A stretch of DNA of 33,200 nt from Pseudomonadota bacterium (GTDB lineage Bacteria > Pseudomonadota > Gammaproteobacteria > Burkholderiales > Eutrophovitaceae), in NCBI GenBank assembly GCA_002704665.1, contig PAHB01000116.1, forward strand, positions 7,429 through 40,628, given 5' to 3'. Positions within the stretch are counted from its first letter, which is position 1; each line of letters opens with the position of its first letter. The notes beneath the pieces are model-generated. The model worked only from the letters and a program-made list of their open reading frames with translations, did no database searches and was not told the origin of the DNA. The position numbers were made by a program, and so were the translations under genes. Shown here one piece after another: positions 1 through 18,041 of the stretch.

Positions 1-345
1 CTTCATTAAAGTTATCAATATTTTTTTTCAAAGTCAACTACAAAACCTTTAAAACAGATTCTTTAGTGTGTAGCTTTTGCTCCTTATTTTAAACAGTGAC
101 TGATTTTCTCTTTAACCATAATACAATTTATTTATTATCTATTTGCTTTTTTATTAGATGTAAGCTTTTTGTATATTGATGTTGGATTACTTCAATTTCT
201 TCCGAGAAACATTCAACCCATTCAAATAGATATCCACAACGAAAGAACTTGAGAAGAGATACTTGCTGAAATTTATAGACGGTTAGAAATAATGAACCTC
301 ATGTAGAAATCATCCCATCCAGTGCTTCTCCAATATGAGAACAAA

Positions 346-711
346 TCAATCTTGAAACCAAAGGGGTTCGTCTTCCAAGAATTCTTTAACAGAAGATTCT
401 GTTCTAGACGGATAATCCCAATCTTTTTCAGACCTGTATTTCAAGTTTACTTGCATAGAGAAGCTCCCAAAATTAATTTCCGTATCGTCTAATACGATTT
501 GTTTTCCATCATAGAAAATTTTTTCCATAAAATTTCCATAGGACGTTTCTACACTAGTAATAAACACTTTTTTTATGTTGAATGGTTCCTCTAATTCCAG
601 GAATGCACTTCCAAGCCCACCTTTTCCTTCCCCAATTCTGCATAAGACTTTATCTTTAAACCATTTTTCGGGTTCATTAGTTAGTAGCACTTCACGCGCA
701 TCAACCTCCAA
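346..711 (-). CDS. hypothetical protein (only a TTG start; in frame with the 760..957 ORF)
   Basis: 121-codon ORF with no ATG start and no motif I recognise. It shares a reading frame with the upstream 65-codon ORF, separated by a single TAA at 760..762. Confidence 0.4.
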   Translation of the reverse strand: MEVDAREVLLTNEPEKWFKDKVLCRIGEGKGGLGSAFLELEEPFNIKKVFITSVETSYGNFMEKIFYDGKQIVLDDTEINFGSFSMQVNLKYRSEKDWDYPSRTESSVKEFLEDEPLWFQD

Positions 712-759
712 AATATCAGAAAGTGGAAATTCTTCATGTCCCTCGACAGTAATATTTTT

Positions 760-957
760 TTAATCTTTTGCAACAAGCTCTGTAAGTAAAATACCTCCAT
801 CAATTTCCTGTGCAACGTATTCATCTATGGTATCCCCGGGGTAATCGTCCCATGAATCTTGCTCTGGAATATCAAGTTCTGGTAGGTATGATTTTAAGGA
901 AACCTCCATATTGCTACCTATTAAACTGAGTTTGTATTTGAAATTATTACTCGCCAT
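760..957 (-). CDS. hypothetical small acidic protein (possibly the N-terminal part of an interrupted gene)
   Basis: 65-codon ORF with an ATG start. It is in frame with 346..711 (346..957 = 612 nt = 204 codons). Confidence 0.4.
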   Translation of the reverse strand: MASNNFKYKLSLIGSNMEVSLKSYLPELDIPEQDSWDDYPGDTIDEYVAQEIDGGILLTELVAKD

Positions 958-1037
958 CTGCCATCCCCTTCAGTTTGCCACCAACGTAATCGTTAACACT
1001 AGAGTAAATACGAGACAAGATCAACTGTTACACGGTG

Positions 1038-1340
1038 CTATTGAGGCGGTTGCAAGTCGTTGAGATATATAGGTCTGTCAAAGTAACATTGAACTCGATA
1101 CTGGAGTTATCCACTGAGGCTATGTTCAATTACTTCAAAATCGGAGGCTCCGGAAATAAAATCATTCAAAAGAAAACGACCTACAATGAAAATATTTTCA
1201 GCATGCTGTTTTTCGAATAAAAGTCACTTCAATTTTTCGATTTGAATAAAGGACGAAGCAATGAAAATCTCATCACTCTCCTTACTAACAGCATCTTTGA
1301 GAATTTTTTTGAACTCGGATGTTGTTACGATCTGCTTCAT
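1038..1340 (-). pseudogene. decayed ORF with in-frame TGA and TAA, ending at TAG
   Basis: One minus-strand frame reads MKQIVTTSEFKKILKDAVSKESDEIFIASSFIQIEKLK-TGA-LLFEKQHAENIFIVGRFLLNDFISGASDFEVIEHSLSG-TAA-LQYRVQCYFDRPIYLNDLQPPQ-TAG. It reads as protein-like across the stops. Resemblance to the N-terminus of PLD-family nucleases is weak and unverified. Confidence 0.3.
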
Positions 1341-1389
1341 AGGTAATACTTGGGATTATATTTTGAAATCAATATATTAAGATAAGTAT

Positions 1390-2979
1390 ATGAAATTAAG
1401 CACTGTTTTAAGTCATTTGTCTATAACTGATTTGCAAGATGCAATAGGAAAGGACTTGGTTGAAGGAATGTTTAAACTAGGTATGGAGGTTGACTCATTA
1501 TCGCTAGCTAATTTGTTGGCCAATGTAAAAGGAATACATATTATTGAGAAAAGTAAGGATATTCGAAAAAAACTAAGTGATACGCGTGGCGCTTTAGACA
1601 ATTTAAACTGGGATAGACAAAAGAAAGCAAAGTTTATAGCAGGTAACCAGGACTTGATTGCTGATTTAGCACGGCATTGTCAGTTGGACTACCCTATAGT
1701 ACAAGTACCATCTGCTGTTCCTTGGTCATGCAAAACGATTCAGCAGGAGCGTTCGCTCCATCCATATCAAAACTGGATAAGAAGAGCTGTTTCTACTCAA
1801 GTTTTAGGAGATAAAAAGTCGAGGCGATGCATTATACATATGCCCACAGGTTCCGGAAAGACAACTACTGCGATGTCGATCATAGTTGATTATTTTAGGG
1901 CTTGCCATCCGAAACCTACCTCTGTCGTATGGCTTGCAAATAAAAATGAACTTTGTAATCAGGCGATTGAGGAATTTGAGCGCTGTTGGAAAAATCAAGG
2001 TAACGGCTCAGTTCAAGCGCATAGATTTTGGGGTAATTACACCTCGATAGAGAATATCGTCGATGACAAAAGTAATTTTTTCGTTACCAGTTTTCAAAGT
2101 GCCAATAGTTATAAAAATTCTAATGATGATGAAAAGTTTAGTGCTCTTTTGAAGATTAGCAATCAGACTAGTTTAATTTTTGTAGATGAAGCACATATGG
2201 CAATCGCAGATACTTACAGGGCCGTTATTGAAATGCTCGCTCAAACAAGTGCAAAAGTCATTGGTCTAACTGCTACCCCGGGTAGACATCATATTGGTCA
2301 AGATTCAGATGAAACAAAAGAACTCCATAATTTTTTCGAAAACAATATTATTCGTTTTAGAAATAATGAAGGGCAAGAGGTCGATGATCCAATAAATTTT
2401 TTAACTCAAGAGGGATACCTTTCAAGCACGCTTTTTGAGACAATCCCCGGATCGAAGCAAACGTGGTCTGGAAAGGAAAAGACAGAATATCTTGGAAAAC
2501 TTGAGATACCCTCAAATGTGCTAAAGCGAATTGATAATGATACTGAGAGAAGATTAACGGTAATTGCGAAAGCACTTGAATTGGCAAAAGAAGGCAGGAA
2601 AACGATCGTATTTGCACCGAGTGTGGATTCTGCTATTTTAATGAGCATCTTCCTTACAGACAAAGGTTACGAGGCGAGAGCAGTATCTGATAGAAACCAG
2701 TTCGTCGAAAGAACTAAAAATATCGAAGATTTTAAAAACGGAGAATTCAGCATACTTTTTAATTACGATATTTTAACCACAGGATTCGACGATCCGAAGA
2801 TTGATGCGGTGCTGATAGCGCGGCCCACGCTATCTGTGGTTTTGTATGCTCAAATGATAGGGAGGGGTCTGCGAGGTTTAAAACTTGGCGGTACTCAGGA
2901 ATGCAAAGTAGTCATGGTAGAAGATAATATGGAAAATATGCCATCAATTAAAATGGCGAGCACTTATTTTTTAGATTAA
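1390..2979 (+). CDS. Superfamily 2 DEAD/DEAH-box helicase (ResIII/XPB-like core) with an uncharacterised N-terminal region of about 120 aa
   Basis: Q-like LHPYQ, motif I HMPTGSGKTTTA, motif II FVDEAHMA, motif III GLTATPGR, motif VI QMIGRGLRG. 529-aa ORF with an 11-bp gap to the next gene. Confidence 0.9.
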   Translation: MKLSTVLSHLSITDLQDAIGKDLVEGMFKLGMEVDSLSLANLLANVKGIHIIEKSKDIRKKLSDTRGALDNLNWDRQKKAKFIAGNQDLIADLARHCQLDYPIVQVPSAVPWSCKTIQQERSLHPYQNWIRRAVSTQVLGDKKSRRCIIHMPTGSGKTTTAMSIIVDYFRACHPKPTSVVWLANKNELCNQAIEEFERCWKNQGNGSVQAHRFWGNYTSIENIVDDKSNFFVTSFQSANSYKNSNDDEKFSALLKISNQTSLIFVDEAHMAIADTYRAVIEMLAQTSAKVIGLTATPGRHHIGQDSDETKELHNFFENNIIRFRNNEGQEVDDPINFLTQEGYLSSTLFETIPGSKQTWSGKEKTEYLGKLEIPSNVLKRIDNDTERRLTVIAKALELAKEGRKTIVFAPSVDSAILMSIFLTDKGYEARAVSDRNQFVERTKNIEDFKNGEFSILFNYDILTTGFDDPKIDAVLIARPTLSVVLYAQMIGRGLRGLKLGGTQECKVVMVEDNMENMPSIKMASTYFLD

Positions 2980-2990
2980 AGGAGACCCGA

Positions 2991-4769
2991 ATGGTTAAAA
3001 TAGTAGAAGCGAGGTTAGTCTTGGGAATGTTACGCGATCAAGGTTATAAAAATTCGTCCTACGCCATAGGGGAATTAGTCGATAACTCAATTGACGCTGG
3101 TGCTAAAGAGATACGCATTGGAATAGGAACCGAGGATATTTATAAAAACCAGAGATATAGTGAAAATATTTCGGCAATCGGAACTTATGATGATGGACAC
3201 GGTATGAATAGAGAAACCCTTGAACGTTGTCTTGTCATGGGCTTGAGTGTAAAAGGAGAACATGAAAAAAACAATGAGCAAGATAGTGATTTGGGTAAAT
3301 ATGGGATTGGATTAAAGGGCGCAACCTTTGGCTTTTGCAAGAGGGTAGATATATATAGCTGGCAAGATGGTAACAAACCCTTACATACCTATCTTGATTA
3401 CGACGAAGCATTTGATACTAACTCTGATGAGGTCGAAGTACCTAAAGAAACAAATATACCTGATAAATTTCAACACTTTGTTGCTGATAAATTACCTCCA
3501 TCTGGTACGCTAGTCGTATGGACTAAATTGGATAGGATTCGTCCTCGTAAGGCGCCTACGTTACTTGATCATTTAAATAAAGACCTTTGTCGTATTTTTC
3601 GTCACTTTATGGATGACGATGATAATCTTGGAACTAGGAGAAATATCACTGCAACATATTTTAATCCACAAAAGCAAGGCGTAGAAACCAAAACACTCAG
3701 AGCTAACGATCCAATTTATCTTCTTAAACCAAATAATACTCCTGGTTACGAAGATGAAGCGACCAACGAATTGTTAAAAAATGAGAAAAAGAAAGTTCAA
3801 TGTCCAAAAGGGACGGAACAGGTTATTGAAGTGATCACAACTATTGCAAAACCCCAAGTACAAAAAGGCCAAGCAGGAGATCAGGATGTTGGCCGACAAC
3901 CTATTGGTAAACATTATGGAGATAACCTGGGTATAAGTATTGTGAGAGCCGGTAGAGAAATTAGATTAAGCGATTTCGGTTTTACTATCGACGATCCGCG
4001 AGAAAGATGGTGGGGAATAGAAGTGCGTATTCCACCAGAACTTGACCAGTATTTCGGCATAACTAACAACAAACAGGATGCTACGGTATTTAAAAAATTT
4101 GATGAATCAGAAATAGAGGCTTATGAGGAAGACTTAGAAAATGGAGATGAAAACGAAAAAAACGCTGCGGAAGCCCTCCTATTTGTAAACAGAGTCATTA
4201 CAACCTTTCTTCAGACTGCTCGAGACACAATTAGAAAGCGAGGTTCGAATACCCGCAACAAAAACAAAAAAGTAAATGTAAAAACGTTACCTGAGGTAGC
4301 TACGGATATTATTAAGGATAAAGATCGTGATGTTGAAACTGAATCTGAAAAGATTGCTGCAGAAAAAACCGAGGATCAGAAGTTAAAAGAGAAAATTGAA
4401 TTGATTCTTCGCGAAGAGCCGGAATTAGAACCTGAAGACGCGGAACGTCGAGCTAAAGACAGCCTTAACCACATTGTTGATATTTTTGAAGATAATTGGC
4501 CTGGCACCACGTTCTTAGATGTTGAGTTTAAAGGTCAAGGTGTTGTAGGAAAAATCAATAGAACTCACCCCTTTTATCGATTTTTTTATGAACCGTTAAA
4601 AGACAGTGAAGATCAACGAGCTTTTCAAGCCTTGCAAGCTTTGTTGCTCTCATACTTTCGTGCTGAAGACACTCTTTATAATCAACTAGGTCATCAACAG
4701 TTACAAAAGATTCGAAACGAGTGGGGTAGAAAAGCTGAGTTACTGATAGAAACTCTCACTAATCACTAA
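2991..4769 (+). CDS. GHKL (Bergerat-fold) ATPase, MORC/HATPase_c_3-like
   Basis: N box ELVDNSIDAGA, G1 box DDGHGM, G2 box GKYGIGLKGA. A downstream segment (GISIVRAGREI...WWGIEVRIPPELDQYFGITNNKQD) resembles the MORC-type transducer region, followed by a charged coiled-coil-like stretch. AAGGAG Shine-Dalgarno lies 6 nt upstream of the ATG. Confidence 0.85.
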   Translation: MVKIVEARLVLGMLRDQGYKNSSYAIGELVDNSIDAGAKEIRIGIGTEDIYKNQRYSENISAIGTYDDGHGMNRETLERCLVMGLSVKGEHEKNNEQDSDLGKYGIGLKGATFGFCKRVDIYSWQDGNKPLHTYLDYDEAFDTNSDEVEVPKETNIPDKFQHFVADKLPPSGTLVVWTKLDRIRPRKAPTLLDHLNKDLCRIFRHFMDDDDNLGTRRNITATYFNPQKQGVETKTLRANDPIYLLKPNNTPGYEDEATNELLKNEKKKVQCPKGTEQVIEVITTIAKPQVQKGQAGDQDVGRQPIGKHYGDNLGISIVRAGREIRLSDFGFTIDDPRERWWGIEVRIPPELDQYFGITNNKQDATVFKKFDESEIEAYEEDLENGDENEKNAAEALLFVNRVITTFLQTARDTIRKRGSNTRNKNKKVNVKTLPEVATDIIKDKDRDVETESEKIAAEKTEDQKLKEKIELILREEPELEPEDAERRAKDSLNHIVDIFEDNWPGTTFLDVEFKGQGVVGKINRTHPFYRFFYEPLKDSEDQRAFQALQALLLSYFRAEDTLYNQLGHQQLQKIRNEWGRKAELLIETLTNH

Positions 4770-5003
4770 ATACTAAGTGATCCTATTAATAATTATTGAG
4801 GAAAAAAATTAATTTTGAACTTGAAATCTTTCTATTGGCTTTAGCACGATTGGCCGAAACAGGAGCTCTGAGAAAAGACAAATATAAGTTTAATCAGATA
4901 TTTTTGCATCTGTATATTTTGTATCGTTTTTAGAAATGGGAAAGCTTTTTATCTTTTGATGCTGTAAATGTTATTAAGTCAATTTCTTAAAAAAACTCGA
5001 TAT

Positions 5004-7562
5004 CTAGGTAAGAGCGAGAAACGATTCGGCACTTTTTACTTGAGGGACTCTTTTTCCTGACGATGCACTTAACATCAAAACAATTTGCTGATTGTTATCG
5101 GGTCCGTAGCTTACATGTATAGGGTTATTGTTCCCATAAAAATAGAGTCTGTCGAAAGGAGTATTGCTAACCGTCCATTGCGCTACTTCTAACATGTTTT
5201 CATCGGCAACTAAAAAATCTACTGCAGCTCCAACCCGTTCACAAATAAGACGGCCATTTTTTTTTACTTCATAACTAGCATGTTGATCCCGCGAGGGGTC
5301 GATTCTAGTTTTGATTAGTTTAGAAAGTGCCATGGATGAGAACCCGTAGGTTAACTCTATCATTCCGAAATATTCGACAACTGGTTCAAGAATAAATCGA
5401 CATAAGTCAGCAAGAGCATTATATGTTTCGGGTTGTTCAGGAAGGTTCTCGCATCCAGTGCGTGCTTGGGTCTCTCCGCATCTTATAAGGTCAATGTAGC
5501 GGAAGTTATTACTACATTTGTCTTCGATATTTGGTATATCTAAAATTCTTGATAGAGTGAAATTGTTGATTTTCCATCTATAGCGCTTAAGTTCTGAATC
5601 AAAAGTGTTTCTTTTTGGTCCGAACTGATCAAAATTAAATATCTTTAAATCTTGAAGAGCCTCATCAAATGCAAGTTGTTTAGAATATTCAGGATATTCT
5701 TCATTGATATAACGTGTTTTTAAATATAGGTAAGGCGCATCTTGAACCTCCTCATAGTTAAAATATTCAATATCCTGTTCAATGAGTTTGACTTTCACTC
5801 GTTCTCTCATTATCGGAAGTGCTTGATTATGGAAATCGTCAAATCGGCATAATGTGATTTTGCCAGATAAGATATGAATTTTAACGAGGTCAGCATTCTT
5901 AAAATCTCCGTACAGCAATGATGCAACTCCAATATAAATTCGTAAAATGGGAGCGAGTTGTTCTACCAAAGAAACGTGTAGCTCTAAAGATCGTCCTTCA
6001 ATTAATCGGCCTAAACCTTTTTCACTTGCTTCCTTACATGCTTGCTCAATAAGGTTTGTGTCGGATATCTCATAAAGTATTTTGCGAGCTTCGGATTCCG
6101 CTGCCTTGAGAGAACCAAAAAAAGTTTTTATATCTAGCTGTAGTGTTTTTTCCATTGTCTTGTAAGGACGACGTTTTTGAAAAATATTCAGCGCTAAATA
6201 CACCTTAAGATCGTCGACTTTTAAATCTCTGGCTGTTTCCAGAACCTCGTCGCCTTTTATTTCTCGCAGTAAACGGAAGGTTTTATTAATTGTACCGAAC
6301 TCTGAAATGAGATTGTCTAAGTTAACGCATTCTGTTTCGTGTGGTTTTCTGCCCAATCGTAGTGACAAAAGCCAAAATTCATCTAATAGTTCTTTATGTT
6401 GTTCGTACTTTTCTAAAAGACGATCTGCTTTGGTTTTAGTGTTCGCGTATAAACGGTGTCGCGGTGCATGCAAAAGATTACGTTTGGTCCTCTGTCTATC
6501 GATTAGAAACCGTTGTTCAAACTCTTTGTCCTTAAACAGATAAATAACACCCGGTGCGACTGGAATTGGTTCCTCTCCGGTTACCTGTTCGATAAACGTT
6601 TTGATTTCAGTTTGCGAGAAGTATTTTTGGAATGTGCCTCTCTTTGTGAGAACTCCATCTGCAAAGGCATCTCCCCCTTTGTTGCTGCTGTTTGATAGCA
6701 TAACTGACACTACTAGTAGTTTATTCGCCAGTTTATATGCGTTGGTTAAAGCCTCTATTCGCTCGTCACGGTCTTCAATGACGTTAATTACAAAACCTAG
6801 ATTTACAATATCTGCACATTGAAGGTTTTGTTCAGAAGCATAATAGGGATCCCAACCGCTTGCTTGTATACCGTTTTCGACTAATCCTCGTAAGTCGTCA
6901 CCTTTACCGCAACCGTAATCAAATAAGGTGAGTTCATTTTTGATAAGGCCGTGTCTTGATAGACTTTGGATAGGCGCGGAAAAGTTGTAACGAACCATAG
7001 CAGTTCGATGACGCGCCGACTGCCAGTCATTTGAAATAGAGTCGTTAACTTCCGGAGCATCTTCATTGCCTAGGGGTAAAAATTGATGCTCTATTACTTG
7101 GTAGCCCTTTGCAAAAATAAGTTCTTCCCAATATTTCAAGAATCCGATACTTACGGAATTTTCGAAAAGCCCAATCGCTTCAGCTTGCTCTGTAAGTTCA
7201 CTAAAAAGATTTTTTTGAGGATGATCTCCGGGGAGAAGCAACTCTTTACGATGAAGAATGGGAGGATTATAAGAATATTGATAGGTTCGGTAAGACGCGG
7301 TCTCCTTGGCTAGATTAACTGTCCATGATTCTCTCAATACAGGAAAACCCTCTGAGAAAAAATCTGGATAGTTGAGTAAAGAAAAGCTTTGTTTCTCCTT
7401 ATCGACGGAGAATACGTTGAATGCCCGGCCTCGTTCGACCGAAGCAAGTTTTTCAGCTTGAATAAGTGCTTCAATTAAATTTTTGTCAAAATCTTCTGAG
7501 TCTATGGCGCAAATATGGAAATATCTGCGGTTTCCGACAATTTTTCCAGTTAATTCACCCAT
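5004..7562 (-). CDS. DNA phosphorothioation-associated putative SAM methyltransferase, large multidomain form (852 aa) with a possible C-terminal M15/hedgehog-type peptidase-fold domain
   Basis: SAM motif I LFDYGCGKGDD, then GWDPYY and NLGFVINVIEDRDER, matching my recollection of family TIGR04096 (dnd-associated methyltransferase). C-terminal DQHASYEV...GAAVDF resembles the S-x-H-x-x-G-x-A-x-D signature of the M15 fold (tentative). Divergently adjacent to sspA. Confidence 0.75.
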   Translation of the reverse strand: MGELTGKIVGNRRYFHICAIDSEDFDKNLIEALIQAEKLASVERGRAFNVFSVDKEKQSFSLLNYPDFFSEGFPVLRESWTVNLAKETASYRTYQYSYNPPILHRKELLLPGDHPQKNLFSELTEQAEAIGLFENSVSIGFLKYWEELIFAKGYQVIEHQFLPLGNEDAPEVNDSISNDWQSARHRTAMVRYNFSAPIQSLSRHGLIKNELTLFDYGCGKGDDLRGLVENGIQASGWDPYYASEQNLQCADIVNLGFVINVIEDRDERIEALTNAYKLANKLLVVSVMLSNSSNKGGDAFADGVLTKRGTFQKYFSQTEIKTFIEQVTGEEPIPVAPGVIYLFKDKEFEQRFLIDRQRTKRNLLHAPRHRLYANTKTKADRLLEKYEQHKELLDEFWLLSLRLGRKPHETECVNLDNLISEFGTINKTFRLLREIKGDEVLETARDLKVDDLKVYLALNIFQKRRPYKTMEKTLQLDIKTFFGSLKAAESEARKILYEISDTNLIEQACKEASEKGLGRLIEGRSLELHVSLVEQLAPILRIYIGVASLLYGDFKNADLVKIHILSGKITLCRFDDFHNQALPIMRERVKVKLIEQDIEYFNYEEVQDAPYLYLKTRYINEEYPEYSKQLAFDEALQDLKIFNFDQFGPKRNTFDSELKRYRWKINNFTLSRILDIPNIEDKCSNNFRYIDLIRCGETQARTGCENLPEQPETYNALADLCRFILEPVVEYFGMIELTYGFSSMALSKLIKTRIDPSRDQHASYEVKKNGRLICERVGAAVDFLVADENMLEVAQWTVSNTPFDRLYFYGNNNPIHVSYGPDNNQQIVLMLSASSGKRVPQVKSAESFLALT

Positions 7563-7760: not shown

Positions 7761-9209
7761 TTGTTACGTGATGCTCCACTAGAGATTCAGGGAAGAGTAT
7801 ACCATCCCACTTCATCTGTTATAAAGCAGTTGCAAGTTACGAGACAAACGCTATGGCGTTGGAGGAAGAGAGGGCTGATACCGCCTGGACATAGCCTCCC
7901 AAACAGAAGAGTTTACTATACTGACGCTGAAGTCGAAAAAATTTGGGCTTACTGTCGACAGGTTGAACAGAATGCTGTCATTAATCAGATTTCACTTTTT
8001 GAAGAGTCATCGATTAACATTAAGAACGACTCATCGCTGTCTGAGACCGACATATATTTAGATAATAATGCTACCACTCAAACATTGAAGTCAGTTCGGC
8101 AAGGGATGATGAAAAATTTAGAAGAGGGATTTGGCAATCCTTCTAGTTCCCATAGTAGGGGTAGTAAAGTCAGAGAGGCCGTTTTTTTAGCGCGAAAAAA
8201 CGTGGCTGAATTAGTTGGCACGGAACCTGAAAATATCATTTTCACTTCTGGTGCAACTGAGTCGAATAACATGGTTCTTCGATCTTTTGCTGATCCTTCA
8301 ACTGACCACATTATTACAACGGCCATCGAACATTCTTCTATTGCTAAACCGTGTAACTATTTAGAGAGTCAGGGAGTGCGCTTGAGTCGAATGAATGTGA
8401 CGGCAGAGGGGCGACTAAACGTTGCTGAGCTTGAGCAAATTTTGTTGACTGAAAAACCTACTCTTGTTGCGCTACACTGGGTTAACAGCGAAACAGGGGT
8501 TATCCAACCGATAGAAGAGATTGCGAGACTATGTCGAGCGCATAAGGTACCTCTGTTGTGCGATGCTGCACAAGCTGTTGGTAGAATTCCGATTGAATTA
8601 GACATGGTTGATGTTGATTTCCTTACAGCATCAGCGCACAAGTTTCATGGGCCACCTGGAGTTGGTATTTTAGCTACTAAAAGTAGTCAATTGATCAAAA
8701 GTCTGGTACTCGGTGGAGACCAGGAGTCAGCTATGAGGCCAGGAACGGAGAATGTCCCAGGTATTGTCGGTCTTGGTATCGCGGCTGATGAGAGAAATAA
8801 AAGTTTGGTTGAAATTTCTTGCGAAATATCTGAATTAAGAGACAGCTTTGAGCGGAAGATTATCGAGAGATTGCCATTCGTAAAAGTTAACGGGGACATT
8901 AATAACAGGGTTTGCAATACATCAAACTTACAGTTCACCGGTATAGATGGACAAGTGTTGTTGGCACAGTTTAATTCGGCGGGTATCTATTGTTCTCAAG
9001 GATCAGCCTGTTCGAGTGCGATACCTGAAGCGTCCCCGGTACTGACTGCGATGGGATTGTCTAGAGATGAGGCGAATTCAAGTATTCGTTTTTCATTCAG
9101 CGCTTTGAATTCTAAAGACGATGTAATAAAAGCAGTTGAAAGAATTGTAGAAAAGACGCTTTTTGTTAAGGATATGACAGAAAAATTGGGGATGACTCGT
9201 GCTAGCTAA
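7761..9209 (+). CDS. sspA: Cysteine desulfurase (SspA/DndA-like, NifS/IscS family) with an N-terminal extension of about 95 aa containing an HTH
   Basis: Class V aminotransferase core starts at IYLDNNATTQ. PLP lysine in SAHKFHGPPGVG, catalytic cysteine loop SQGSACSS. N-terminal SSVIKQLQVTRQTLWRWRKRGLIPP resembles a MerR/excisionase-type HTH. TTG start; no in-frame ATG before the desulfurase core. Confidence 0.85.
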   Translation: MLRDAPLEIQGRVYHPTSSVIKQLQVTRQTLWRWRKRGLIPPGHSLPNRRVYYTDAEVEKIWAYCRQVEQNAVINQISLFEESSINIKNDSSLSETDIYLDNNATTQTLKSVRQGMMKNLEEGFGNPSSSHSRGSKVREAVFLARKNVAELVGTEPENIIFTSGATESNNMVLRSFADPSTDHIITTAIEHSSIAKPCNYLESQGVRLSRMNVTAEGRLNVAELEQILLTEKPTLVALHWVNSETGVIQPIEEIARLCRAHKVPLLCDAAQAVGRIPIELDMVDVDFLTASAHKFHGPPGVGILATKSSQLIKSLVLGGDQESAMRPGTENVPGIVGLGIAADERNKSLVEISCEISELRDSFERKIIERLPFVKVNGDINNRVCNTSNLQFTGIDGQVLLAQFNSAGIYCSQGSACSSAIPEASPVLTAMGLSRDEANSSIRFSFSALNSKDDVIKAVERIVEKTLFVKDMTEKLGMTRAS

Positions 9210-9219
9210 TGGAACAAAG

Positions 9220-10083
9220 ATGAAGTTCGGAGCTCATCAGACTTTTGCTTTACGCGAAGGTTGGCTTCATAAAGGAGTCAGGCTGTTGGAGTCAGGTCAG
9301 GCTAATTTTGAAAGTGATGACGCTCAAAATAAGCTTGGAGTTGGTCGCAACATGGTTAAGTCAATTAAATTTTGGATGCAGCTTACGGGCTTAATTGAAA
9401 AGAACACGCAAACAGGCAACGTAGAACTGTCGCCCTTGGCTCAATTAATCAGTCAACACGATCCGTATTTCATCGAAAATGAGACCTGGTGGGCGTTACA
9501 CGTTAATATGACTACTCATAAAGAATCGCCTTGGTGCTGGTTTTTTGAAAATTTTCGAGGAGATAAGTTTGATCGAGCGCAATGTATTGAACAACTAAAC
9601 CGGTTCGTTCGGGTTGGGAACAAAAGGCCTCCTCAAATAAAAACTATTCAGCGGGAAGTGGCATGTCTTCTGCAAACTTATGGTCAGTCGATACCTGCCG
9701 AAAGGACCGATCCTGAGGATGGTAATGATTGTCCTTTCATTCGGCTTAATTTATTACAGCATTTCAAAGAGTCTGGAGCCTTTCGGTTTCAAAAGAACAC
9801 TTCTTTTCCGACTGCGAAAGAAATACTTTGTTATGCGTTAGCTAAACAATTTAACAATGGGTTTGACATTCGTCTACAAGAAGCGGTGGCGGCGACTTGC
9901 TCTTTATTTAAGATAGATGAAGACGTTCTTGTTATAACGATTGAAGAAGCTATTGCTGAGTTTGGATCGGAGAAGATCAACTTGATTAATCAGGCGGGAG
10001 AAAGGTTGATTACCATGGATTTTGATCTATGTTGGCTAAAAACTTTTTACCTTAATAGCAATCGAACACGTAACGCGGCTTAA
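9220..10083 (+). CDS. sspB: DUF4007-family protein (SspB-like, proposed nickase of the Ssp system)
   Basis: N-terminus MKFGAHQTFALREGWLHKG matches my recollection of the DUF4007 start. Sits between the desulfurase and the large ATPase. The ORF track starts at GTG 9199; ATG 9220 is more likely. Confidence 0.7.
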   Translation: MKFGAHQTFALREGWLHKGVRLLESGQANFESDDAQNKLGVGRNMVKSIKFWMQLTGLIEKNTQTGNVELSPLAQLISQHDPYFIENETWWALHVNMTTHKESPWCWFFENFRGDKFDRAQCIEQLNRFVRVGNKRPPQIKTIQREVACLLQTYGQSIPAERTDPEDGNDCPFIRLNLLQHFKESGAFRFQKNTSFPTAKEILCYALAKQFNNGFDIRLQEAVAATCSLFKIDEDVLVITIEEAIAEFGSEKINLINQAGERLITMDFDLCWLKTFYLNSNRTRNAA

Positions 10084-10104
10084 ATATTGATGAGCGCCAA
10101 GTAA

Positions 10105-13100
10105 ATGAGCATGAATATACAATTTTTAAAATCGATAAACATTCTTCAAGATATTGAATATCCTGAACGGCTTCTACACTTTCGGCCGACTATGAAGTCT
10201 GTTTCCCTTTTGAATCGATTGCTGTTACGGGGAGATTTCAGAGAACGGACTTATTCCGTGATCGCACCTTATGGAACAGGGAAGTCACTTACGTGTGCAT
10301 ATCTCACACAACTCGTTGAAAATAGAACTACCCATGATACAGAACTACTAATCCATACCGTATCAGATCGCATGGTTGCGGTGGATCCTGCTTTAGCGTC
10401 GTTTTCTCGGGAGCGGATGTCCAGCAAGTTCAAAGGAATGGCGATAGCACTCGAAGGTTACCAACCTAATCTTGTAGAGTCCCTACGAGAAGCCACGGTC
10501 AGTGCGATTAAACGCAACAAACTTGGTCGAGTTCCAACGGCGTTCACCATGTCCAAAGAAGAAGAGGTGCAGGTTAATCAAGGTCGAGCATTAGATAAAT
10601 TGTTAACGGCTTTAGTGAAATTCGCTGAAAAGAAAAAAGTTGATAGGATAGTTCTAGTCTGGGATGAGTTTGGCCGACATCTAGAAGAATTAGTAGGGAA
10701 TGGGCAAGGACCGGCTTTAGCGATCGTGCAACAGCTCGCGGAGAAAATCGCTAGGGTGACGGACCTTACTATAAGTTTTGCCACAATCACCCACCGTGCC
10801 TTTAACTCCTACCAAGAAAACCTGCCTACCAACGAGCAGCAAGAGTGGAATAAGGTTAACGGTCGATTCACAAGCTACTCATATACGGACGACACTATTG
10901 AAATCTATGAGTTGCTTGGTGATGTGATTGATGGACTTCAAATATCCTCGGGCGCTTCAAAAAAAAATCTAAAGACAACTGCTGAAAGATTGTTATCTGT
11001 TCGGCTTTTTTCAGATTTTAAAATCGATCGCTTAATAAACTTATTAGATTCGATTGGCTCCACTGATCCAATCGCCTTTTATCTTTTACCTCTGTTAGCC
11101 GCGCGGACTGCTCAAAATGAACGAACAATGTTCAGTTTTCTCCAAGCTTTTCCTCATGATAAGCCTATCGGAGTTGATGAGCTTTATGAGTATTTTTCTC
11201 CGTCTATGGAGATGGATCGTGGCGTCGGCGGATCGAATCGCGTTTGGCTCGAAACAGAGAGTGCCTGTGCAAAGGTTGATACCGATCAAGAAAAAACGAT
11301 CTTGAGACTGACTAGCCTGCTCGGGTTAACTTTAAAAGAGAAAGGTATTAAAGTTACTCCAAAATTGCTCTCCACAGTAGCATCCATAGGTCCTCGCTCA
11401 AAAAAGTCTGTTGATCAAACTATTCGCTCTCTTATGGACCGGAATTTGCTTCTACATCGCACACATACTGATGTGGTTTCTTTGTGGCACGGAACAAGTA
11501 CTGATCTCAAAGAACGTCTTCGAGATTTAGAAGCTTCTGAACGACAACGACTCGATTTAATTGAATTTTTAAAGCAAGAGTATCCATGCGCGTCGATAAA
11601 ACCAGTGCGATACAACGATCAAAATGCTATTCGCCGATTCTTCATAAGACACTATGTATCTAGTGGTCTATTCATTGGACAAGAATATGGCCGACTAAGT
11701 CTCGGTATGGAAGCAAATGTGGACGGAACAATTCACTATATATTTGTAGAGAACGAAAATGATCGAAAGAAAGTGATCGAAAAGTTACACGAGGATGAGG
11801 TAGAGAAGAGGAGACTGTTTGCGGTCGTCGATCTTCCCGCAGGGATAAGAGATGCGGCGGTAGAATTGTCAGCGCTACGATTGCTAGCAAATGACGAAGA
11901 ATTGATAGGACAAGATCCTTTAATAGGAGATGAAATCTCACAAAAAATTGATGACGTTTTGGCCTATCTTGAGAAACAGGTCGATTTTTTGTTGCGACCG
12001 GAAAACATTATCAGTTGGTATCATAATGGAGAAAATATCTTGATCCGAAGCCAGTCTGAGTTACTCGAAAAATTATCGTCTATCATGGATTTAACTTTTG
12101 GAGAGACGCCTTATATTAATAATGAGATGATTAATCGGTTTACTCCGAATGCCTCTCAGGTGAGTGCTCGCAAGAAGGTTTCTCTCGGGATTCTTGAACG
12201 ATACGGACATGAGCGATTAGGAATCAAAGGGGAAAACGCGGATAAAGCGATTTTTAGAAGTGTATTACTAGAGACCGGCCTATATATTCCGAGCGAACCC
12301 GATAGTGAGTTACGGTGGCGTTTCGTGCTTCCCAGTGAAATCTCAGATTCGAATCAGAGATTGAAAAACGTTTGGATGAAATTTGAGAGTTTCCTTACCC
12401 AACCAAAAAAAGGAAAAAAAGAATTTAAAGAGTTTTTTCGACACCTTGAGAGTCCTCCTATTGGTTTACGAACAGGAATAATCCCGATTTTACTTGCCGC
12501 AGGGCTAAAGGCATTCCCGAATGTGGGTTCGATAGCAAGACGCAACGGGGACTCAATCAATGATTTAACGCCCTCAGAGATTGAGGATATTTGCAGGAAG
12601 CCAGAAGACTTTTTTCTTACTGTAATTGAGATAGATGAGCAGAAGCAAGAATTTCTGAAAGGGATTATATCGCTCTTTTCTAGGGAAGGGGAAGAGAACA
12701 CTATTGAGGGTGCGGGATTGTTGAAAACTGCTCATGAAGCGGTAGTCGATTGGAGCGTTGTAGAGCTTGGTAAAGGAGCACGCGAGTCTAGATTGATTAA
12801 GGGTGAAACGCGAAAGTTACAGCGGGCTTTAAGGCGATTAAATGATCCGCAAAAGTTGTTGCTTGAAGATCTTTTCAAACTAGGAGGGACGGAGGCAACT
12901 GTGCAGAAGCGCTTATTGAAACTTGAGACTCTTAAAAAAGAAATGGAAGAGCTTCCTAAAACATATCAGAATCTGGCAACTCGACATATAATTCTTGCCT
13001 TAGATGATGGGGTGCCTAAAACGGAACTCAATTTGCTTGAAACACTGAAATCCTGGCAAGGTGAGGTTGGTGGTCAAATTAAAGAAAAAAATCTCTCAGC

Positions 13101-13473
13101 TGAAGCAAATCTACTTTTGAAGAGTCTGAATTCGGCTTATTTAACTGAAAGTTCTGCAATTGAGAGAATCGGCCTAGTAGTTACAAACCAGATTTTTAAA
13201 CATTGGTCTGATGAAATATTGCAATTATTTCGATTGAAATTTAATGACAATATTAGCACTATAGAAGCCGAAGTTCTGATAAATAGTCAAGGGAATCAGG
13301 AAACCCTTAAGAGCCGGATGTTGAGGAATAGATTACTCAAATTGGCTGGGGCCCTGAAAGATGAGGTCGGCGAGGCGGACACGCTGAGTTACCTTTTAGA
13401 ACTTCAACAATCACTTACTGAAGAGGGGACATTATCTAATGCCAACAGTCAAAGACGCGATAGAAAACTCTGA
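10105..13473 (+). CDS. sspC: Large P-loop NTPase (SspC-like)
   Basis: Walker A APYGTGKS, Walker B-like IVLVWDEFGRHLE, long helical C-terminal region (1122 aa). Lies between the DUF4007 and PP-loop genes. Its 3' end overlaps the next gene by 35 nt. Confidence 0.7.
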   Translation: MSMNIQFLKSINILQDIEYPERLLHFRPTMKSVSLLNRLLLRGDFRERTYSVIAPYGTGKSLTCAYLTQLVENRTTHDTELLIHTVSDRMVAVDPALASFSRERMSSKFKGMAIALEGYQPNLVESLREATVSAIKRNKLGRVPTAFTMSKEEEVQVNQGRALDKLLTALVKFAEKKKVDRIVLVWDEFGRHLEELVGNGQGPALAIVQQLAEKIARVTDLTISFATITHRAFNSYQENLPTNEQQEWNKVNGRFTSYSYTDDTIEIYELLGDVIDGLQISSGASKKNLKTTAERLLSVRLFSDFKIDRLINLLDSIGSTDPIAFYLLPLLAARTAQNERTMFSFLQAFPHDKPIGVDELYEYFSPSMEMDRGVGGSNRVWLETESACAKVDTDQEKTILRLTSLLGLTLKEKGIKVTPKLLSTVASIGPRSKKSVDQTIRSLMDRNLLLHRTHTDVVSLWHGTSTDLKERLRDLEASERQRLDLIEFLKQEYPCASIKPVRYNDQNAIRRFFIRHYVSSGLFIGQEYGRLSLGMEANVDGTIHYIFVENENDRKKVIEKLHEDEVEKRRLFAVVDLPAGIRDAAVELSALRLLANDEELIGQDPLIGDEISQKIDDVLAYLEKQVDFLLRPENIISWYHNGENILIRSQSELLEKLSSIMDLTFGETPYINNEMINRFTPNASQVSARKKVSLGILERYGHERLGIKGENADKAIFRSVLLETGLYIPSEPDSELRWRFVLPSEISDSNQRLKNVWMKFESFLTQPKKGKKEFKEFFRHLESPPIGLRTGIIPILLAAGLKAFPNVGSIARRNGDSINDLTPSEIEDICRKPEDFFLTVIEIDEQKQEFLKGIISLFSREGEENTIEGAGLLKTAHEAVVDWSVVELGKGARESRLIKGETRKLQRALRRLNDPQKLLLEDLFKLGGTEATVQKRLLKLETLKKEMEELPKTYQNLATRHIILALDDGVPKTELNLLETLKSWQGEVGGQIKEKNLSAEANLLLKSLNSAYLTESSAIERIGLVVTNQIFKHWSDEILQLFRLKFNDNISTIEAEVLINSQGNQETLKSRMLRNRLLKLAGALKDEVGEADTLSYLLELQQSLTEEGTLSNANSQRRDRKL

Positions 13474-14245
13474 AACAAATGAATACCGACATATTGTGAG
13501 CGTCTCTGGAGGCAAAGACTCCACGGCACTTGCTATTTATATGCAGCAAGAATATCCCGATCTTTCGACGGAATACGTGTTCTGTGATACCGGCTCGGAG
13601 CTTCCTGAAACTTATGAATATCTCGACAAGTTAGAAGTTGTCTTGGGAAAAAAAATTCAAAGATTAAATGCGCTAGAGGGGCTTAACATACGAAAGCGCC
13701 CGGGGCGCTCAGCATTTGAGTTTTTGTTAAAAGAGCTTTATGGAGGGTATCTTCCTTCTCCTCGAGCTAGATGGTGCACATCCACTCTTAAAATCATACC
13801 TTTTGAAAAATATGTGGGAGAGGACAAGGCATACAGTTATATTGGTATCCGTGCTGATGAAGATCGAGAAGGCTATACATCAAGAAAGCCTCCAGCACTT
13901 TCCGAGTTGCCTAATATTATTCCCGTTTATCCCTTCAAGGACGCTGATCTGGGTTTAGAGGATATAAACGATATTCTAGCTGACGCGGGCATAGGCTTGC
14001 CAAAGTATTATGAATGGCGTTCGCGTTCTGGATGTTACTTTTGTTTTTACCAGCAGATAGGAGAATGGCAAGGGCTCAAAGAGCGTCATCCAGATTTATA
14101 CGAGAAGGCGAAAGCATTTGAAAAGACAGAAGGTGATAAGAAATTCACTTGGGTTGATGGTCGCACGTTGTCTGACGTCGAGAAAATTAAGAAGCGTTAT
14201 GAAATCAAAAGTGTAAAAGATGGGTGTGCTATCTGTCACCTTTAG
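13439..14245 (+). CDS. sspD: PP-loop ATP pyrophosphatase, PAPS reductase family (SspD/DndC-like)
   Basis: PP-loop SVSGGKDS near the N-terminus. Cysteine clusters SGCYFCFYQ and GCAICHL at the C-terminus. Overlaps the preceding ATPase gene. Confidence 0.85.
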   Translation: MPTVKDAIENSETNEYRHIVSVSGGKDSTALAIYMQQEYPDLSTEYVFCDTGSELPETYEYLDKLEVVLGKKIQRLNALEGLNIRKRPGRSAFEFLLKELYGGYLPSPRARWCTSTLKIIPFEKYVGEDKAYSYIGIRADEDREGYTSRKPPALSELPNIIPVYPFKDADLGLEDINDILADAGIGLPKYYEWRSRSGCYFCFYQQIGEWQGLKERHPDLYEKAKAFEKTEGDKKFTWVDGRTLSDVEKIKKRYEIKSVKDGCAICHL

Positions 14246-14403: not shown

Positions 14404-15237
14404 ATGAAAATTGGCACTGCTATAAGAAACATGGGGCCTGCTGCCAAGCGAGATATTATCTTATCCAGTGCGCAAATGGCCGAGAAAGCCTCGCTGGAAC
14501 ACATTTGGGCTGTTGATCACGTAGCGATTCCTCCTGATGAGTCCGAGGGGTCTGACGGAATTTGGTTGGACCCACTCGCGGTATTATCTTTTTTCGCGGC
14601 CGCAACCAGTGAGATAAAAATTGGTGTCAGTGTCCTGGTGCTACCCTATCGTCCTCCTTTGCTAACTGCAAAGTGGGTGGCAAGCATACAAGAACTGTCT
14701 AACGAAAGACTGTTGCTTGGCGTAGGGTCGGGTTGGATGGAAGCGGAGTACAAGGTTTTGGGGGTGGAAAAAAGAAAGCGCGGAAAATTAACTGACGAAG
14801 GCTTAGATTTTTTGCGCACCTGTTTCAATTCAAAGAATGATGTAGTGAACCTTAATGGACAGGATTTTTATTTTCGGCCGAAGCCGAAGTGTCCTCCAAT
14901 TTATGTGGGAGGCATGACGGAGGCTGCCCTTCGTAGGGTCGTTGAACGCGGCGAGGGGTGGATGCCTGTTGGTTTAGATCCTGTAAAGATAAAACCTCTC
15001 GCGGCCCAGTTAAAGGTACTGTCGGAAAGAGCGGAAAAACCAATTCCAAAGATAATGGTGCTGGGAAGTCTGCCGGATGATAACAGCAAAGCAGTAGATG
15101 ATTTATTAGAGTGCCAGGAATTAGGTGTAACCGACTACATTCAGGCCTCTCGTTACTCCAGGATCGAAGAATTTGAAAATATAGTCGCGAGATTAACAGA
15201 GCTTAAAAGTCAGACTGAAGATTCGTCGATAGTTTGA
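14404..15237 (+). CDS. Luciferase-like monooxygenase (LLM) class flavin/F420-dependent oxidoreductase
   Basis: 277 aa. Segments IWAVDHV, LGVGSGW and PPIYVGG...GEGWMP resemble LLM/Rv2161c-type oxidoreductases. AAAGGGG ribosome-binding site upstream of the ATG. Confidence 0.75.
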   Translation: MKIGTAIRNMGPAAKRDIILSSAQMAEKASLEHIWAVDHVAIPPDESEGSDGIWLDPLAVLSFFAAATSEIKIGVSVLVLPYRPPLLTAKWVASIQELSNERLLLGVGSGWMEAEYKVLGVEKRKRGKLTDEGLDFLRTCFNSKNDVVNLNGQDFYFRPKPKCPPIYVGGMTEAALRRVVERGEGWMPVGLDPVKIKPLAAQLKVLSERAEKPIPKIMVLGSLPDDNSKAVDDLLECQELGVTDYIQASRYSRIEEFENIVARLTELKSQTEDSSIV

Positions 15238-15267
15238 TTTAGTAAATGTCGATGAGATTTATTTTAG

Positions 15268-15693
15268 TTGGTAAAAAGTAATAGTTATCAATCGAATTGG
15301 AGGCAGGCTATTTTTCCACGTAAATTTTATTATAGTGAATCTAGTTTCGGAACAGGTGAGGATTCCTTTGAGATCGAGTGGTTAGAGGGTGAACTCCAAG
15401 TGAGCGGTCATCCTTTTAATCAATATTTTTGCGAAGGAAGTATAAACATAAAGATTCCCAGTAATAGGTGGACAACCTTTGAGACCAAGGTTAGCGCTAT
15501 GAGATTAGCGCCAATTGAGACTGGTATTTTAGATGGTACATTTGTTGATTGTTGGATAACTTTTCGAAGACAGATAATAAAATTTGCGATGAGCAATCCA
15601 GATTTCAGCGGCTTCTTGAAGATGAGAAAATTGATTAATGACCTGACCATTTGTTCTAAACTTCCCAAGGGCATTGTTGAGGCGATGCGGTAA
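15268..15693 (+). CDS. hypothetical protein
   Basis: 141-codon ORF with a TTG start and no motif I recognise. Confidence 0.4.
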   Translation: MVKSNSYQSNWRQAIFPRKFYYSESSFGTGEDSFEIEWLEGELQVSGHPFNQYFCEGSINIKIPSNRWTTFETKVSAMRLAPIETGILDGTFVDCWITFRRQIIKFAMSNPDFSGFLKMRKLINDLTICSKLPKGIVEAMR

Positions 15694-17850: not shown

Positions 17851-17967
17851 GCTGATCGTCGTTGGTACTGGACGATAGTTGATACTATAAGATACTAAGT
17901 GCTTGATATCGTTGCAATAAGTTTGTTTTATTGGATAAAGCTGGATGGTGCTGGAATGGGGTAAATG

Positions 17968-18041
17968 CGCCCTGAGCAGGATTCGAACCTGCGACTTCAC
18001 CCTTAGGAGGGGTGCGCTCTATCCAGCTGAGCTACCAGGGC
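17968..18041 (-). tRNA. tRNA-Arg (anticodon CCU)
   Basis: Minus-strand sequence GCCCTGGTAGCTCAGCTGGATAGAGCGCACCCCTCCTAAGGGTGAAGTCGCAGGTTCGAATCCTGCTCAGGGCG folds as a cloverleaf: 7-bp acceptor stem with one G-U, D arm GCTC/GAGC, anticodon stem CACCC/GGGTG with loop CTCCTAA, T arm GCAGG-TTCGAAT-CCTGC. CCA is not fully encoded. Confidence 0.85.

Follow-up and report, generated by a model that had tools for sequence, protein, structure and literature searches.

We describe a candidate restriction module associated with single-strand DNA phosphorothioation (PT), detected in a 33,200-nucleotide stretch of DNA from a Pseudomonadota bacterium (GenBank assembly GCA_002704665.1, contig PAHB01000116.1, positions 7,429 to 40,628). 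This whole stretch is referred to below as the window, and all positions are given in its own numbering. A gene for a superfamily 2 (SF2) helicase and a gene for a MORC/SMCHD1-like GHKL ATPase lie side by side in the window, near an sspABCD cluster for PT modification. It is probable, in our judgement, that this pair is the ATP-driven core of a conserved module of restriction type, made up of three genes and dependent on phosphorothioation by SspABCD, the third gene being that for an HKD nuclease of the phospholipase D (PLD) family, which is present in most relatives and decayed in the window. We give about an even chance to the wider proposal that Ssp, besides SspE and SspFGH, has a third and possibly most common class of restriction partner, made up of helicase, GHKL ATPase and HKD nuclease. 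The same even chance is given to its extension, in which the module would explain a large share of the 'orphan' sspBCD clusters, with a MutL/MORC-style GHKL clamp linking the PT mark to a translocase and a nuclease.

Linkage of the pair to ssp genes

Relatives of the GHKL protein were collected in a one-genome-per-species scan, in which at least 482 genomes carried one. The 80 best-scoring loci were then scanned in six frames with family hidden Markov models (HMMs) built from those same loci; they are cited below by number (L001 and so on) where they need to be told apart. These loci belonged to Proteobacteria, Actinobacteria, Cyanobacteria, Chloroflexi, Planctomycetes, Spirochaetes, Acidobacteria and Bacteroidetes, and one was from an archaeal metagenome-assembled genome. 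In 69 of the 73 evaluable loci, the GHKL gene was immediately preceded by the helicase gene, at a median gap of 18 bp. When only the 43 loci with full 10-kb flanks were considered, SspC or SspD was found within 10 kb in 42, and SspB, SspC and SspD together in 40. Of 60 loci, 24 had sspD immediately next to the helicase gene, on its 5' side and in the same orientation, and the canonical order in relatives was (sspA) sspB-sspC-sspD, helicase, GHKL ATPase and HKD nuclease. No other defence system showed a comparable linkage in clustering of the open reading frames (ORFs) of the loci. The only fully flanked locus without ssp genes was L048 (Brucella haematophila).

The association was also observed from the opposite side. 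In an SspD-centred scan of IMG/VR, 22 loci encoded SspB, SspC and SspD, and nine of these carried the module helicase and/or GHKL gene (four with a visible HKD gene) and three an SspE-like gene, while the others had neither module nor SspE-like gene or ended next to sspD. Going by this sample, the module seems to adjoin sspBCD no less often than SspE does. Co-occurrence of the helicase/GHKL pair with sspBCD, which the preliminary description of this DNA had proposed as a check, was thus observed in both directions. The same arrangement is visible in RefSeq. On plasmid pOM4 of Mesorhizobium onobrychidis, genes annotated as 'DEAD/DEAH box helicase', 'ATP-binding protein' and 'phospholipase D-like domain-containing protein' follow in this order and adjoin genes for a PAPS-reductase-family protein, an ATP-binding protein, a DUF4007 protein and a cysteine desulfurase; a similar gene order, with generic names only, was found on plasmid A of Trichormus variabilis ATCC 29413.

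A separate GmrSD/SspE-like gene (GmrSD_N plus GmrSD_C) was present in 9 of the 43 fully flanked loci. SspE-like genes co-occurring with the module were noted in L018, L019, L024, L035, L053, L055, L063 and others, and two different Ssp-linked effectors may be stacked in such loci, as reported for SspE and SspFGH. In the Streptomyces loci L045, L061, L067 and L075, a second, divergent SspD-like gene stands behind a small conserved gene (family c15), 3' of the helicase-GHKL-HKD set.

The helicase, the GHKL ATPase and the HKD nuclease

The preliminary description, made from the letters of the DNA, had read in the window two co-oriented genes 11 bp apart with AAGGAG before the second, a complete SF2 core in the first product, and all Bergerat-fold boxes followed by a MORC-like transducer in the second, with no recognisable nuclease motif in either. 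All of these readings held in the analysis, and the modelling of both proteins with Foldseek searches, which had been proposed there, gave consistent matches. Between the helicase stop codon TAA (2977-2979) and the ATG at 2991 lie 11 nt, AGGAGACCCGA; with its AAGGAG, this spacer suggests that the two genes are coupled in translation or as an operon. The helicase matched the Pfam families ResIII (5e-26) and Helicase_C (9e-15), both above cutoff. Its motifs MPTGSGKT (residues 151-158), DEAH (266-269), TATPGR (294-299) and QMIGRGLRG (488-496) were invariant or near-invariant in a 39-sequence family alignment, and the family included 1838 homologues. Motifs Q, I, Ia, II (DEAH), III and VI together with two RecA-like domains place the protein within SF2. 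In the AlphaFold2 (AF2) model (predicted local distance difference test score, pLDDT, 87), a helical N-terminal domain of about 100 residues is connected through a disordered linker (104-119) to a RadD/XPB-like core of two RecA domains, and the top Foldseek matches were RadD, XPB/Ssl2 and SauUSI. Judged from the model, the nearest relatives of the helicase are mostly motors of the double-strand DNA translocase type. The protein is not RadD itself, the NCBIfam score for RadD being 104 bits against a cutoff of 720. It also matched the PADLOC model of PbeA at 2e-25, in the SF2 part only (positions 248-617 of 672), and TIGR04095 of NCBIfam weakly, far under the cutoff; at the level of sequence, these similarities give this kind of system a precedent.

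The GHKL protein matched HATPase_c_3 of Pfam at 1.6e-19, and its Bergerat boxes (E28/D31/N32, D67-x-G69-x-G71-M72 and G102-x-x-G105-x-G107-L108) were invariant in 58 homologues. A second conserved block included ANDPxYLL, H308..N312-x-G-x-S-x-x-R-A-x-R-E323, R339..E344 and NNKQ362. The conserved transducer segment ends in N359-N360-K361-Q362, of which K361 is the conserved basic residue, and the protein thus combines the two features of the MORC/paraMORC type, a Bergerat-fold GHKL domain and an S5-like transducer with a conserved basic residue. In its AF2 model (mean pLDDT 90, from the 58-sequence alignment), the GHKL domain (about 1-210) and the S5-like transducer (about 215-365) with the NNKQ loop are followed by a helical stretch (372-491), a small beta domain at 496-523 and, at the C-terminal end, a long helix (542-591). 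The best Foldseek matches in the PDB were the ATPase module of SMCHD1, MORC2/3/4 and Hsp90, and the family profile retrieved from PDB sequences first MORC2, MORC4 and MORC3, then SMCHD1, and then MutL/PMS1. Designation of the protein as 'MORC-like' is therefore supported by modelling and profile at the level of fold. The long helical region and the small C-terminal domain are specific to this family when compared with the MORC/paraMORC systems of 2008 discussed below. Hundreds of full-length homologues were found, annotated merely as 'ATP-binding protein' or 'hypothetical protein', and a profile search of 1.84 billion representative proteins yielded at least 1370 clusters at 50% identity with E ≤ 1e-30. 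Neither the helicase nor the GHKL protein showed a nuclease motif or domain in Pfam, PADLOC or NCBIfam.

The description of the locus as a two-gene unit has to be replaced, as the relatives showed three genes. By ORF clustering, a third family of about 311 amino acids was detected in 60 of the 80 loci, directly 3' of the GHKL gene and on the same strand; with the HMM, 54 of 72 evaluable loci had the HKD gene as the next gene 3' of the GHKL gene, and 57 had it at any position. The protein carries the motif LH[GA]K-x4-D-x6-GS[AS]NLT, in which H86, K88, S100 and N102 were invariant in the family alignment. Of three members tested, two reached the PLDc_2 cutoff (27) at 29-30 bits, and the family profile matched PLD nucleases and the PLD domain of SauUSI (7clg, 9e-6); weak matches to DrmC and DpdK were also observed. 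The mechanism of interference had been called not obvious, which remains correct for the pair itself with no nuclease in it, but the HKD gene of the relatives would supply the cutting activity.

The gene adjoining the GHKL gene, be it HKD, HNH or another, was present in 65 of 72 relatives. An HTH-HNH_4 gene, encoding a helix-turn-helix (HTH) fused to HNH_4, was present in five cyanobacterial loci, and a family of about 360 amino acids without recognised domain (c10) filled the nuclease slot in five beta/gamma-proteobacterial loci. In the remaining 7 of the 72 loci no nuclease gene was recognised, although in some the GHKL gene has a GmrSD-like neighbour; TIGR04096 and/or GmrSD-like genes are carried by several nuclease-less relatives (L002, L026, L039, L047 and L063). 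A fixed helicase-GHKL core with a swappable nuclease fits the expectation for a restriction effector and not that for a helper of modification, and as such swaps in the third slot are typical of restriction effectors, they were counted for a restriction role. As to the individual loci, an HTH+HNH_4 gene was noted just 5' of the helicase gene in the cyanobacterial loci L028 (6992-8374), L042, L056, L058, L066 and L079; HKD is missing from several of these HTH+HNH_4 loci, and one nuclease seems to have taken the place of the other there. The c10 loci are L031, L034 (about 11755-12837), L048, L049 and L057, a subgroup in which the helicase is divergent. A Cap4/DUF4297-like nuclease was suspected from the N-terminal sequence of c10 but found no support in Pfam or the PDB.

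In the window, the HKD gene is represented by remnants (Table 1). The segments 1340-1227 (HMM positions 3-35) and 1223-1110 (positions 44-71) are separated by an in-frame TGA at 1224-1226, and the second ends in a further stop. A tblastn search with the HKD protein of L013 detected window positions 1331-1056 at an E value of 7e-8. The remnant is divergent from the helicase gene, as is the HKD gene in L001, one of the closest relatives fetched. At the place of the catalytic core, about 810 bp are foreign to HKD and include the 346-957 frame, which is interrupted by a single in-frame TAA near 760 and matched no Pfam, NCBIfam or HKD-family HMM; this may be an inserted gene that is by now broken too. 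The HKD active-site motif H-x-K-x4-D-x6-G-S-x-N was absent from the window, and a six-frame search of the whole window with the family HMM gave a sole match, at 1110-1340, with no second HKD copy. Sequencing error is an unlikely cause, since the large neighbouring genes are intact. Because the remnants contain in-frame stops and lack the HxK/GSxN core, the restriction activity of the window copy has probably been lost. The helicase and GHKL genes are full length and keep all catalytic residues, and the simplest reading of the window is a module of the usual kind that has recently lost its nuclease. Most likely, as far as sequence can tell, the locus keeps PT modification and an intact helicase/GHKL pair, with cleavage lost or being lost. 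The GHKL gene was split into two adjacent HMM matches, with no helicase detected, in the IMG/VR sspBCD loci L082 (2335-4044) and L083 (7579-9261), which may be further decaying modules.

Known systems and weighing of the readings

Neighbourhoods combining MORC/paraMORC ATPases with superfamily-II helicases and nucleases, HKD nucleases included, were predicted to be restriction-modification (R-M)-like systems by Iyer, Abhiman and Aravind (PMC2292703), as the preliminary description had stated. The module resembles these systems of 2008 in the GHKL+S5 ATPase gene beside a superfamily-II helicase and a nuclease, and in mobility and patchy distribution; the conserved adjacency of the three is seen in our relatives, and in the window that of the helicase, the nuclease being a remnant. 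The 2008 systems, which were predicted to loop or scan DNA from the mark to the cut site, differ in being linked to DNA methylases, and PT, PAPS reductase, Dnd and Ssp are absent from that paper (PMC2292703). PbeABCD, or CxC-ABC-DndE (PMC6459918; re-annotated in PMC10853773), likewise combines an HKD nuclease and an SF2 helicase in a candidate restriction system associated with PT. There, however, HKD and SF2 are fused in PbeA, a CxC ABC ATPase (PbeC) and a DndE homologue (PbeD) are added, and the partner is Dnd, whereas our module has separate HKD and SF2 genes, a GHKL ATPase, no DndE and Ssp as its partner. Identity with PbeABCD was rejected, as the helicase polypeptide has no HKD domain and the locus no ABC ATPase or DndE.

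SspE and SspFGH (PMC8092258) take the same position beside sspBCD and use PT as self mark or signal. SspE, unlike the module, is a single GmrSD-like protein of DUF262 and DUF1524, and SspFGH consists of a Walker-A protein, a protein of unknown kind and an FtsK-like protein. Neither window protein matched GmrSD_N/C or the PADLOC model of SspE, and no PADLOC match to SspF, SspG or SspH was detected among 10 window proteins, whose domain content also differs from the published description; both identities were rejected. SauUSI (PDB 7clg), an ATP-dependent type IV restriction enzyme, also joins a PLD-family nuclease to an SF2 translocase motor, onto which the helicase model superposes, but in one polypeptide with an SRA-like reader of modified cytosine, with no GHKL partner and no cognate modification system. 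In MutL-MutH-UvrD, the system of methyl-directed mismatch repair, the GHKL+S5 ATPase MutL links the reading of a strand mark with a separate nuclease and with a helicase, and DISARM combines a helicase, the PLD nuclease DrmC (weakly matched) and a modification enzyme. With both, the analogy is architectural only; MutS/MutH and DrmA/DrmB are lacking, and the similarity is that of shared superfamily domains; the Drm set was not found beyond the weak DrmC-like matches of the relatives' HKD proteins, and DISARM was set aside.

An N-terminal GHKL ATPase in anti-phage defence is also known from validated systems, in MzaB (MZA) and in VcSduA, a paraMORC3-type Shedu protein. The match to MzaB extends over about 200 N-terminal residues only, and MZA was rejected at 63 bits against a cutoff of 850 (NCBIfam). 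The GHKL domain of VcSduA is required and thought to control the nuclease, but it is fused to a PD-(D/E)xK nuclease and VcSduA needs neither helicase nor modification module (PMC12137116). The helicase-methylase-ATPase system Hma, considered for the adjacent methyltransferase-like gene, gave no PADLOC match and uses a 5-methylcytosine methyltransferase, and matches to BbrUII/HgiDII were partial or under cutoff. A search against named defence profiles had been proposed as a check on novelty, and the helicase and GHKL protein matched no model of SspE, SspF/G/H, PbeA-D, Hma or MzaB above threshold in PADLOC (2023) and NCBIfam (2026), DefenseFinder not being included.

The open literature searched (reappraisals of PT systems, BREX diversity, a PT study of the gut microbiome and reviews to 2026) contained no helicase, GHKL or PLD partner of Ssp. 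The effectors named for Ssp in these sources, PMC8092258 among them, are SspE and SspFGH only, which agrees with the earlier statement that the pairing is not known as a characterised Ssp partner. Both the MORC-type ATPase/SFII helicase/nuclease architecture and the concept of a PT-dependent partner are known; their combination as a widespread companion of Ssp appears undescribed. As many as 83.9% of sspBCD loci have neither SspE nor SspFGH (PMC8092258), and sspE is missing from 5518 of 5530 Ssp-positive Acinetobacter baumannii genomes (PMC12421847). The module, found on plasmids and islands of many phyla, is a clonable candidate for the missing restriction partner of orphan sspBCD clusters. 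If the proposal is true, this would be the first case in bacteria of a MORC-like ATPase linked with a defined epigenetic mark of the DNA backbone, and would offer an experimentally tractable model of how GHKL ATPases of the MORC/SMCHD1 type couple recognition of a mark to action on DNA. The decayed nuclease of the window points to piecemeal loss of such modules.

In the mechanism we propose, PT written by SspABCD would serve as the self mark. The RadD/XPB-like SF2 protein would translocate along duplex DNA, the MORC-like GHKL+S5 protein would form an ATP-driven dimer that clamps or loops DNA and acts as matchmaker for the other two proteins, and the single-HKD nuclease, presumably dimeric when active, would nick or cut DNA of foreign PT status. 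The closest parallels for such a mechanism are MutL, which links a strand mark with MutH and UvrD, the predicted R-M-like MORC/paraMORC systems of 2008, and the PLD+SF2 enzymes SauUSI and PbeA. PT-free DNA might be attacked, as with SspFGH and DndFGH, or the module might be activated through PT sensing, as with SspE; we lean toward attack on PT-free DNA. SspFGH is known to be toxic in the absence of PT (PMC8092258).

The linkage to sspBCD could also be explained if the helicase and GHKL protein were accessories of PT modification, with roles in target search, DNA opening, PT turnover or repair of SspB nicks, and if the HKD protein processed DNA for modification. Under this explanation one can account for the co-operonic position with sspBCD, for the intact pair in the window and in the 7 of 72 loci without recognised nuclease, for GHKL identity that tracks SspB and SspC, and for the kinship with the repair proteins RadD and MutL. 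We regard it as unlikely, however, because characterised SspABCD systems modify DNA without such proteins (PMC8092258), 13 of the 22 sspBCD loci showed no module in the available flanks, the swappable HKD, HNH and other third genes are hard to fit to a modification helper, and the nearest matches are restriction enzymes and R-M-like MORC systems. Quite improbable in our view is an independent MORC-type defence, as pair or triad, that merely resides with Ssp in islands and has no PT dependence. The presence of SspC/SspD in all but one of the 43 fully flanked loci argues against it, as do the same-strand contiguity with sspD in many loci, the extension of the ssp linkage over more than 10 phyla, and the lack of comparable linkage to other defence systems noted above. 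It can draw on the occurrence of MORC/paraMORC-helicase-nuclease systems with other modification genes (PMC2292703), on L048, in which a GHKL gene, a divergent helicase gene and c10 are found with no ssp gene within 10 kb, and on the divergent gene that separates the window pair from sspA.

A different question is whether the window pair acts without HKD, by a replication block or with a different effector, for instance the TIGR04096 protein or a nuclease whose gene lies elsewhere. Both window ORFs are full length with all catalytic residues, the nuclease-less relatives named above carry TIGR04096 and/or GmrSD-like genes, and PbeABCD was reported to halt replication without DNA degradation (PMC6459918). 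Nevertheless, about 80% of relatives possess an HKD gene, which co-varies with the pair, the TIGR04096 protein showed no nuclease domain, and recent loss of the nuclease with partners not yet decayed fits the data equally; HKD-free action is thus possible but not very likely.

The PT-dependent three-gene module therefore remains the reading that we prefer, for which the correlations of pairwise identity given below, the matches of both the HKD profile and the helicase model to SauUSI and that of the helicase to the SF2 part of PbeA also speak. Several points weigh against it. The function proposed for the module is a prediction from genomic linkage and domain content, and the sequences fit both PT rules alike. 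The window lacks an intact nuclease, as do 7 of 72 relatives, which indicates that the pair can persist alone. SspE-like genes occur in 9 of 43 loci, so that the module may be one effector among others and not necessarily the chief one. The loci analysed, 80 in number, were those that scored best among at least 482 matches, and the SspD-centred sample of 22 loci is small, was taken from 'viral' contigs and relied on an SspD alignment built from module-linked loci. The correlations of pairwise identity across loci (GHKL-helicase 0.68, GHKL-HKD 0.67, GHKL-SspC 0.65 and GHKL-SspB 0.63) partly reflect shared ancestry; for DndCD and DndFGH, a correlation of 0.58 was taken as co-evolution (PMC6459918).

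Ssp genes and other features of the window

Table 1. Position of the module genes, HKD remnants, ssp genes and island features in the window
Feature	Position	Strand	Evidence
HKD gene, probable C-terminal remnant	131-298	-	HMM positions 286-314, 7.6 bits (weak), right strand and order
Frame of about 200 codons, unrelated to HKD	346-957	-	ORFs 760-957 and 346-711 in one frame
HKD gene, N-terminal remnant	1110-1340	-	tblastn, family HMM (positions 3-35 and 44-71), ORF list
SF2 helicase/translocase, 529 aa	1390-2979	+	ResIII and Helicase_C, conserved motifs, AF2/Foldseek
Intergenic spacer with AAGGAG ribosome-binding site, 11 nt	2980-2990	+	Sequence read directly
MORC/SMCHD1-like GHKL+S5 ATPase, 592 aa	2991-4769	+	HATPase_c_3, AF2/Foldseek, family profile
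TIGR04096 'DNA phosphorothioation-associated putative methyltransferase', 852 aa	5004-7562	-	NCBIfam
sspA-sspB-sspC-sspD single-strand phosphorothioation module	7761-14245	+	PADLOC, Pfam
sspA	7761-9209	+	PADLOC SspA 3e-121; N-terminal MerR-type HTH
sspB	9199-10083	+	PADLOC SspB 2e-76
sspC	10105-13473	+	PADLOC SspC 5e-130
sspD	13439-14245	+	PADLOC SspD 2e-94
Tyrosine integrase	16534-17742	-	Pfam Phage_integrase, Phage_int_M, Arm-DNA-bind_3
tRNA-Arg(CCT), one island end	17967-18041	-	ARAGORN

The preliminary description had placed the pair beside an Ssp module within a tRNA-borne island. The Ssp module was confirmed by strong PADLOC matches to SspA-D (Table 1) and by the Pfam domains Aminotran_5, DUF4007 and PAPS_reduct, and the cluster encodes the full set of cysteine desulfurase, DUF4007 protein, BrxC-like ATPase and PAPS-reductase-like protein. 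The island was borne out in part: one end is marked by tRNA-Arg(CCT) and the adjacent integrase, and the G+C content is elevated inside, while the far end lies outside the window. No second copy of the tRNA 3' end (att) was found within the window, and the island therefore runs off its left edge. A scan of 1000-5200 for promoters and terminators gave no signal above shuffled expectation.

The TIGR04096 gene lies on the opposite strand between the helicase/GHKL pair and sspA, and is a frequent accessory gene, present in 16 of 43 loci. Its product matched TIGR04096 at 570.9 bits (cutoff 150) over residues 182-671, with a motif DYGCGKG like that of class-I S-adenosylmethionine-dependent methyltransferases and a weak match to Methyltransf_23 of Pfam. 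A conserved N-terminal extension and a C-terminal domain of about 180 amino acids with a weak signature like Peptidase_M15_3 (LAS-type, zinc-binding) were also observed. The protein was considered as a nuclease and rejected, as it showed no nuclease domain, no sequence match in the PDB and, at the C-terminus, this weak peptidase-like signature.

Directly after sspD and still within the island, the region 14404-15693 holds a gene for an F420/FMN-dependent oxidoreductase of the LLM class (TIGR03619, marginally over the cutoff) and a 141-aa ORF without family, neither of which is conserved in related loci. In SspA, the MerR-type helix-turn-helix at residues of about 18-71 is fused to the cysteine desulfurase, and this fusion hints at autoregulation or DNA tethering.

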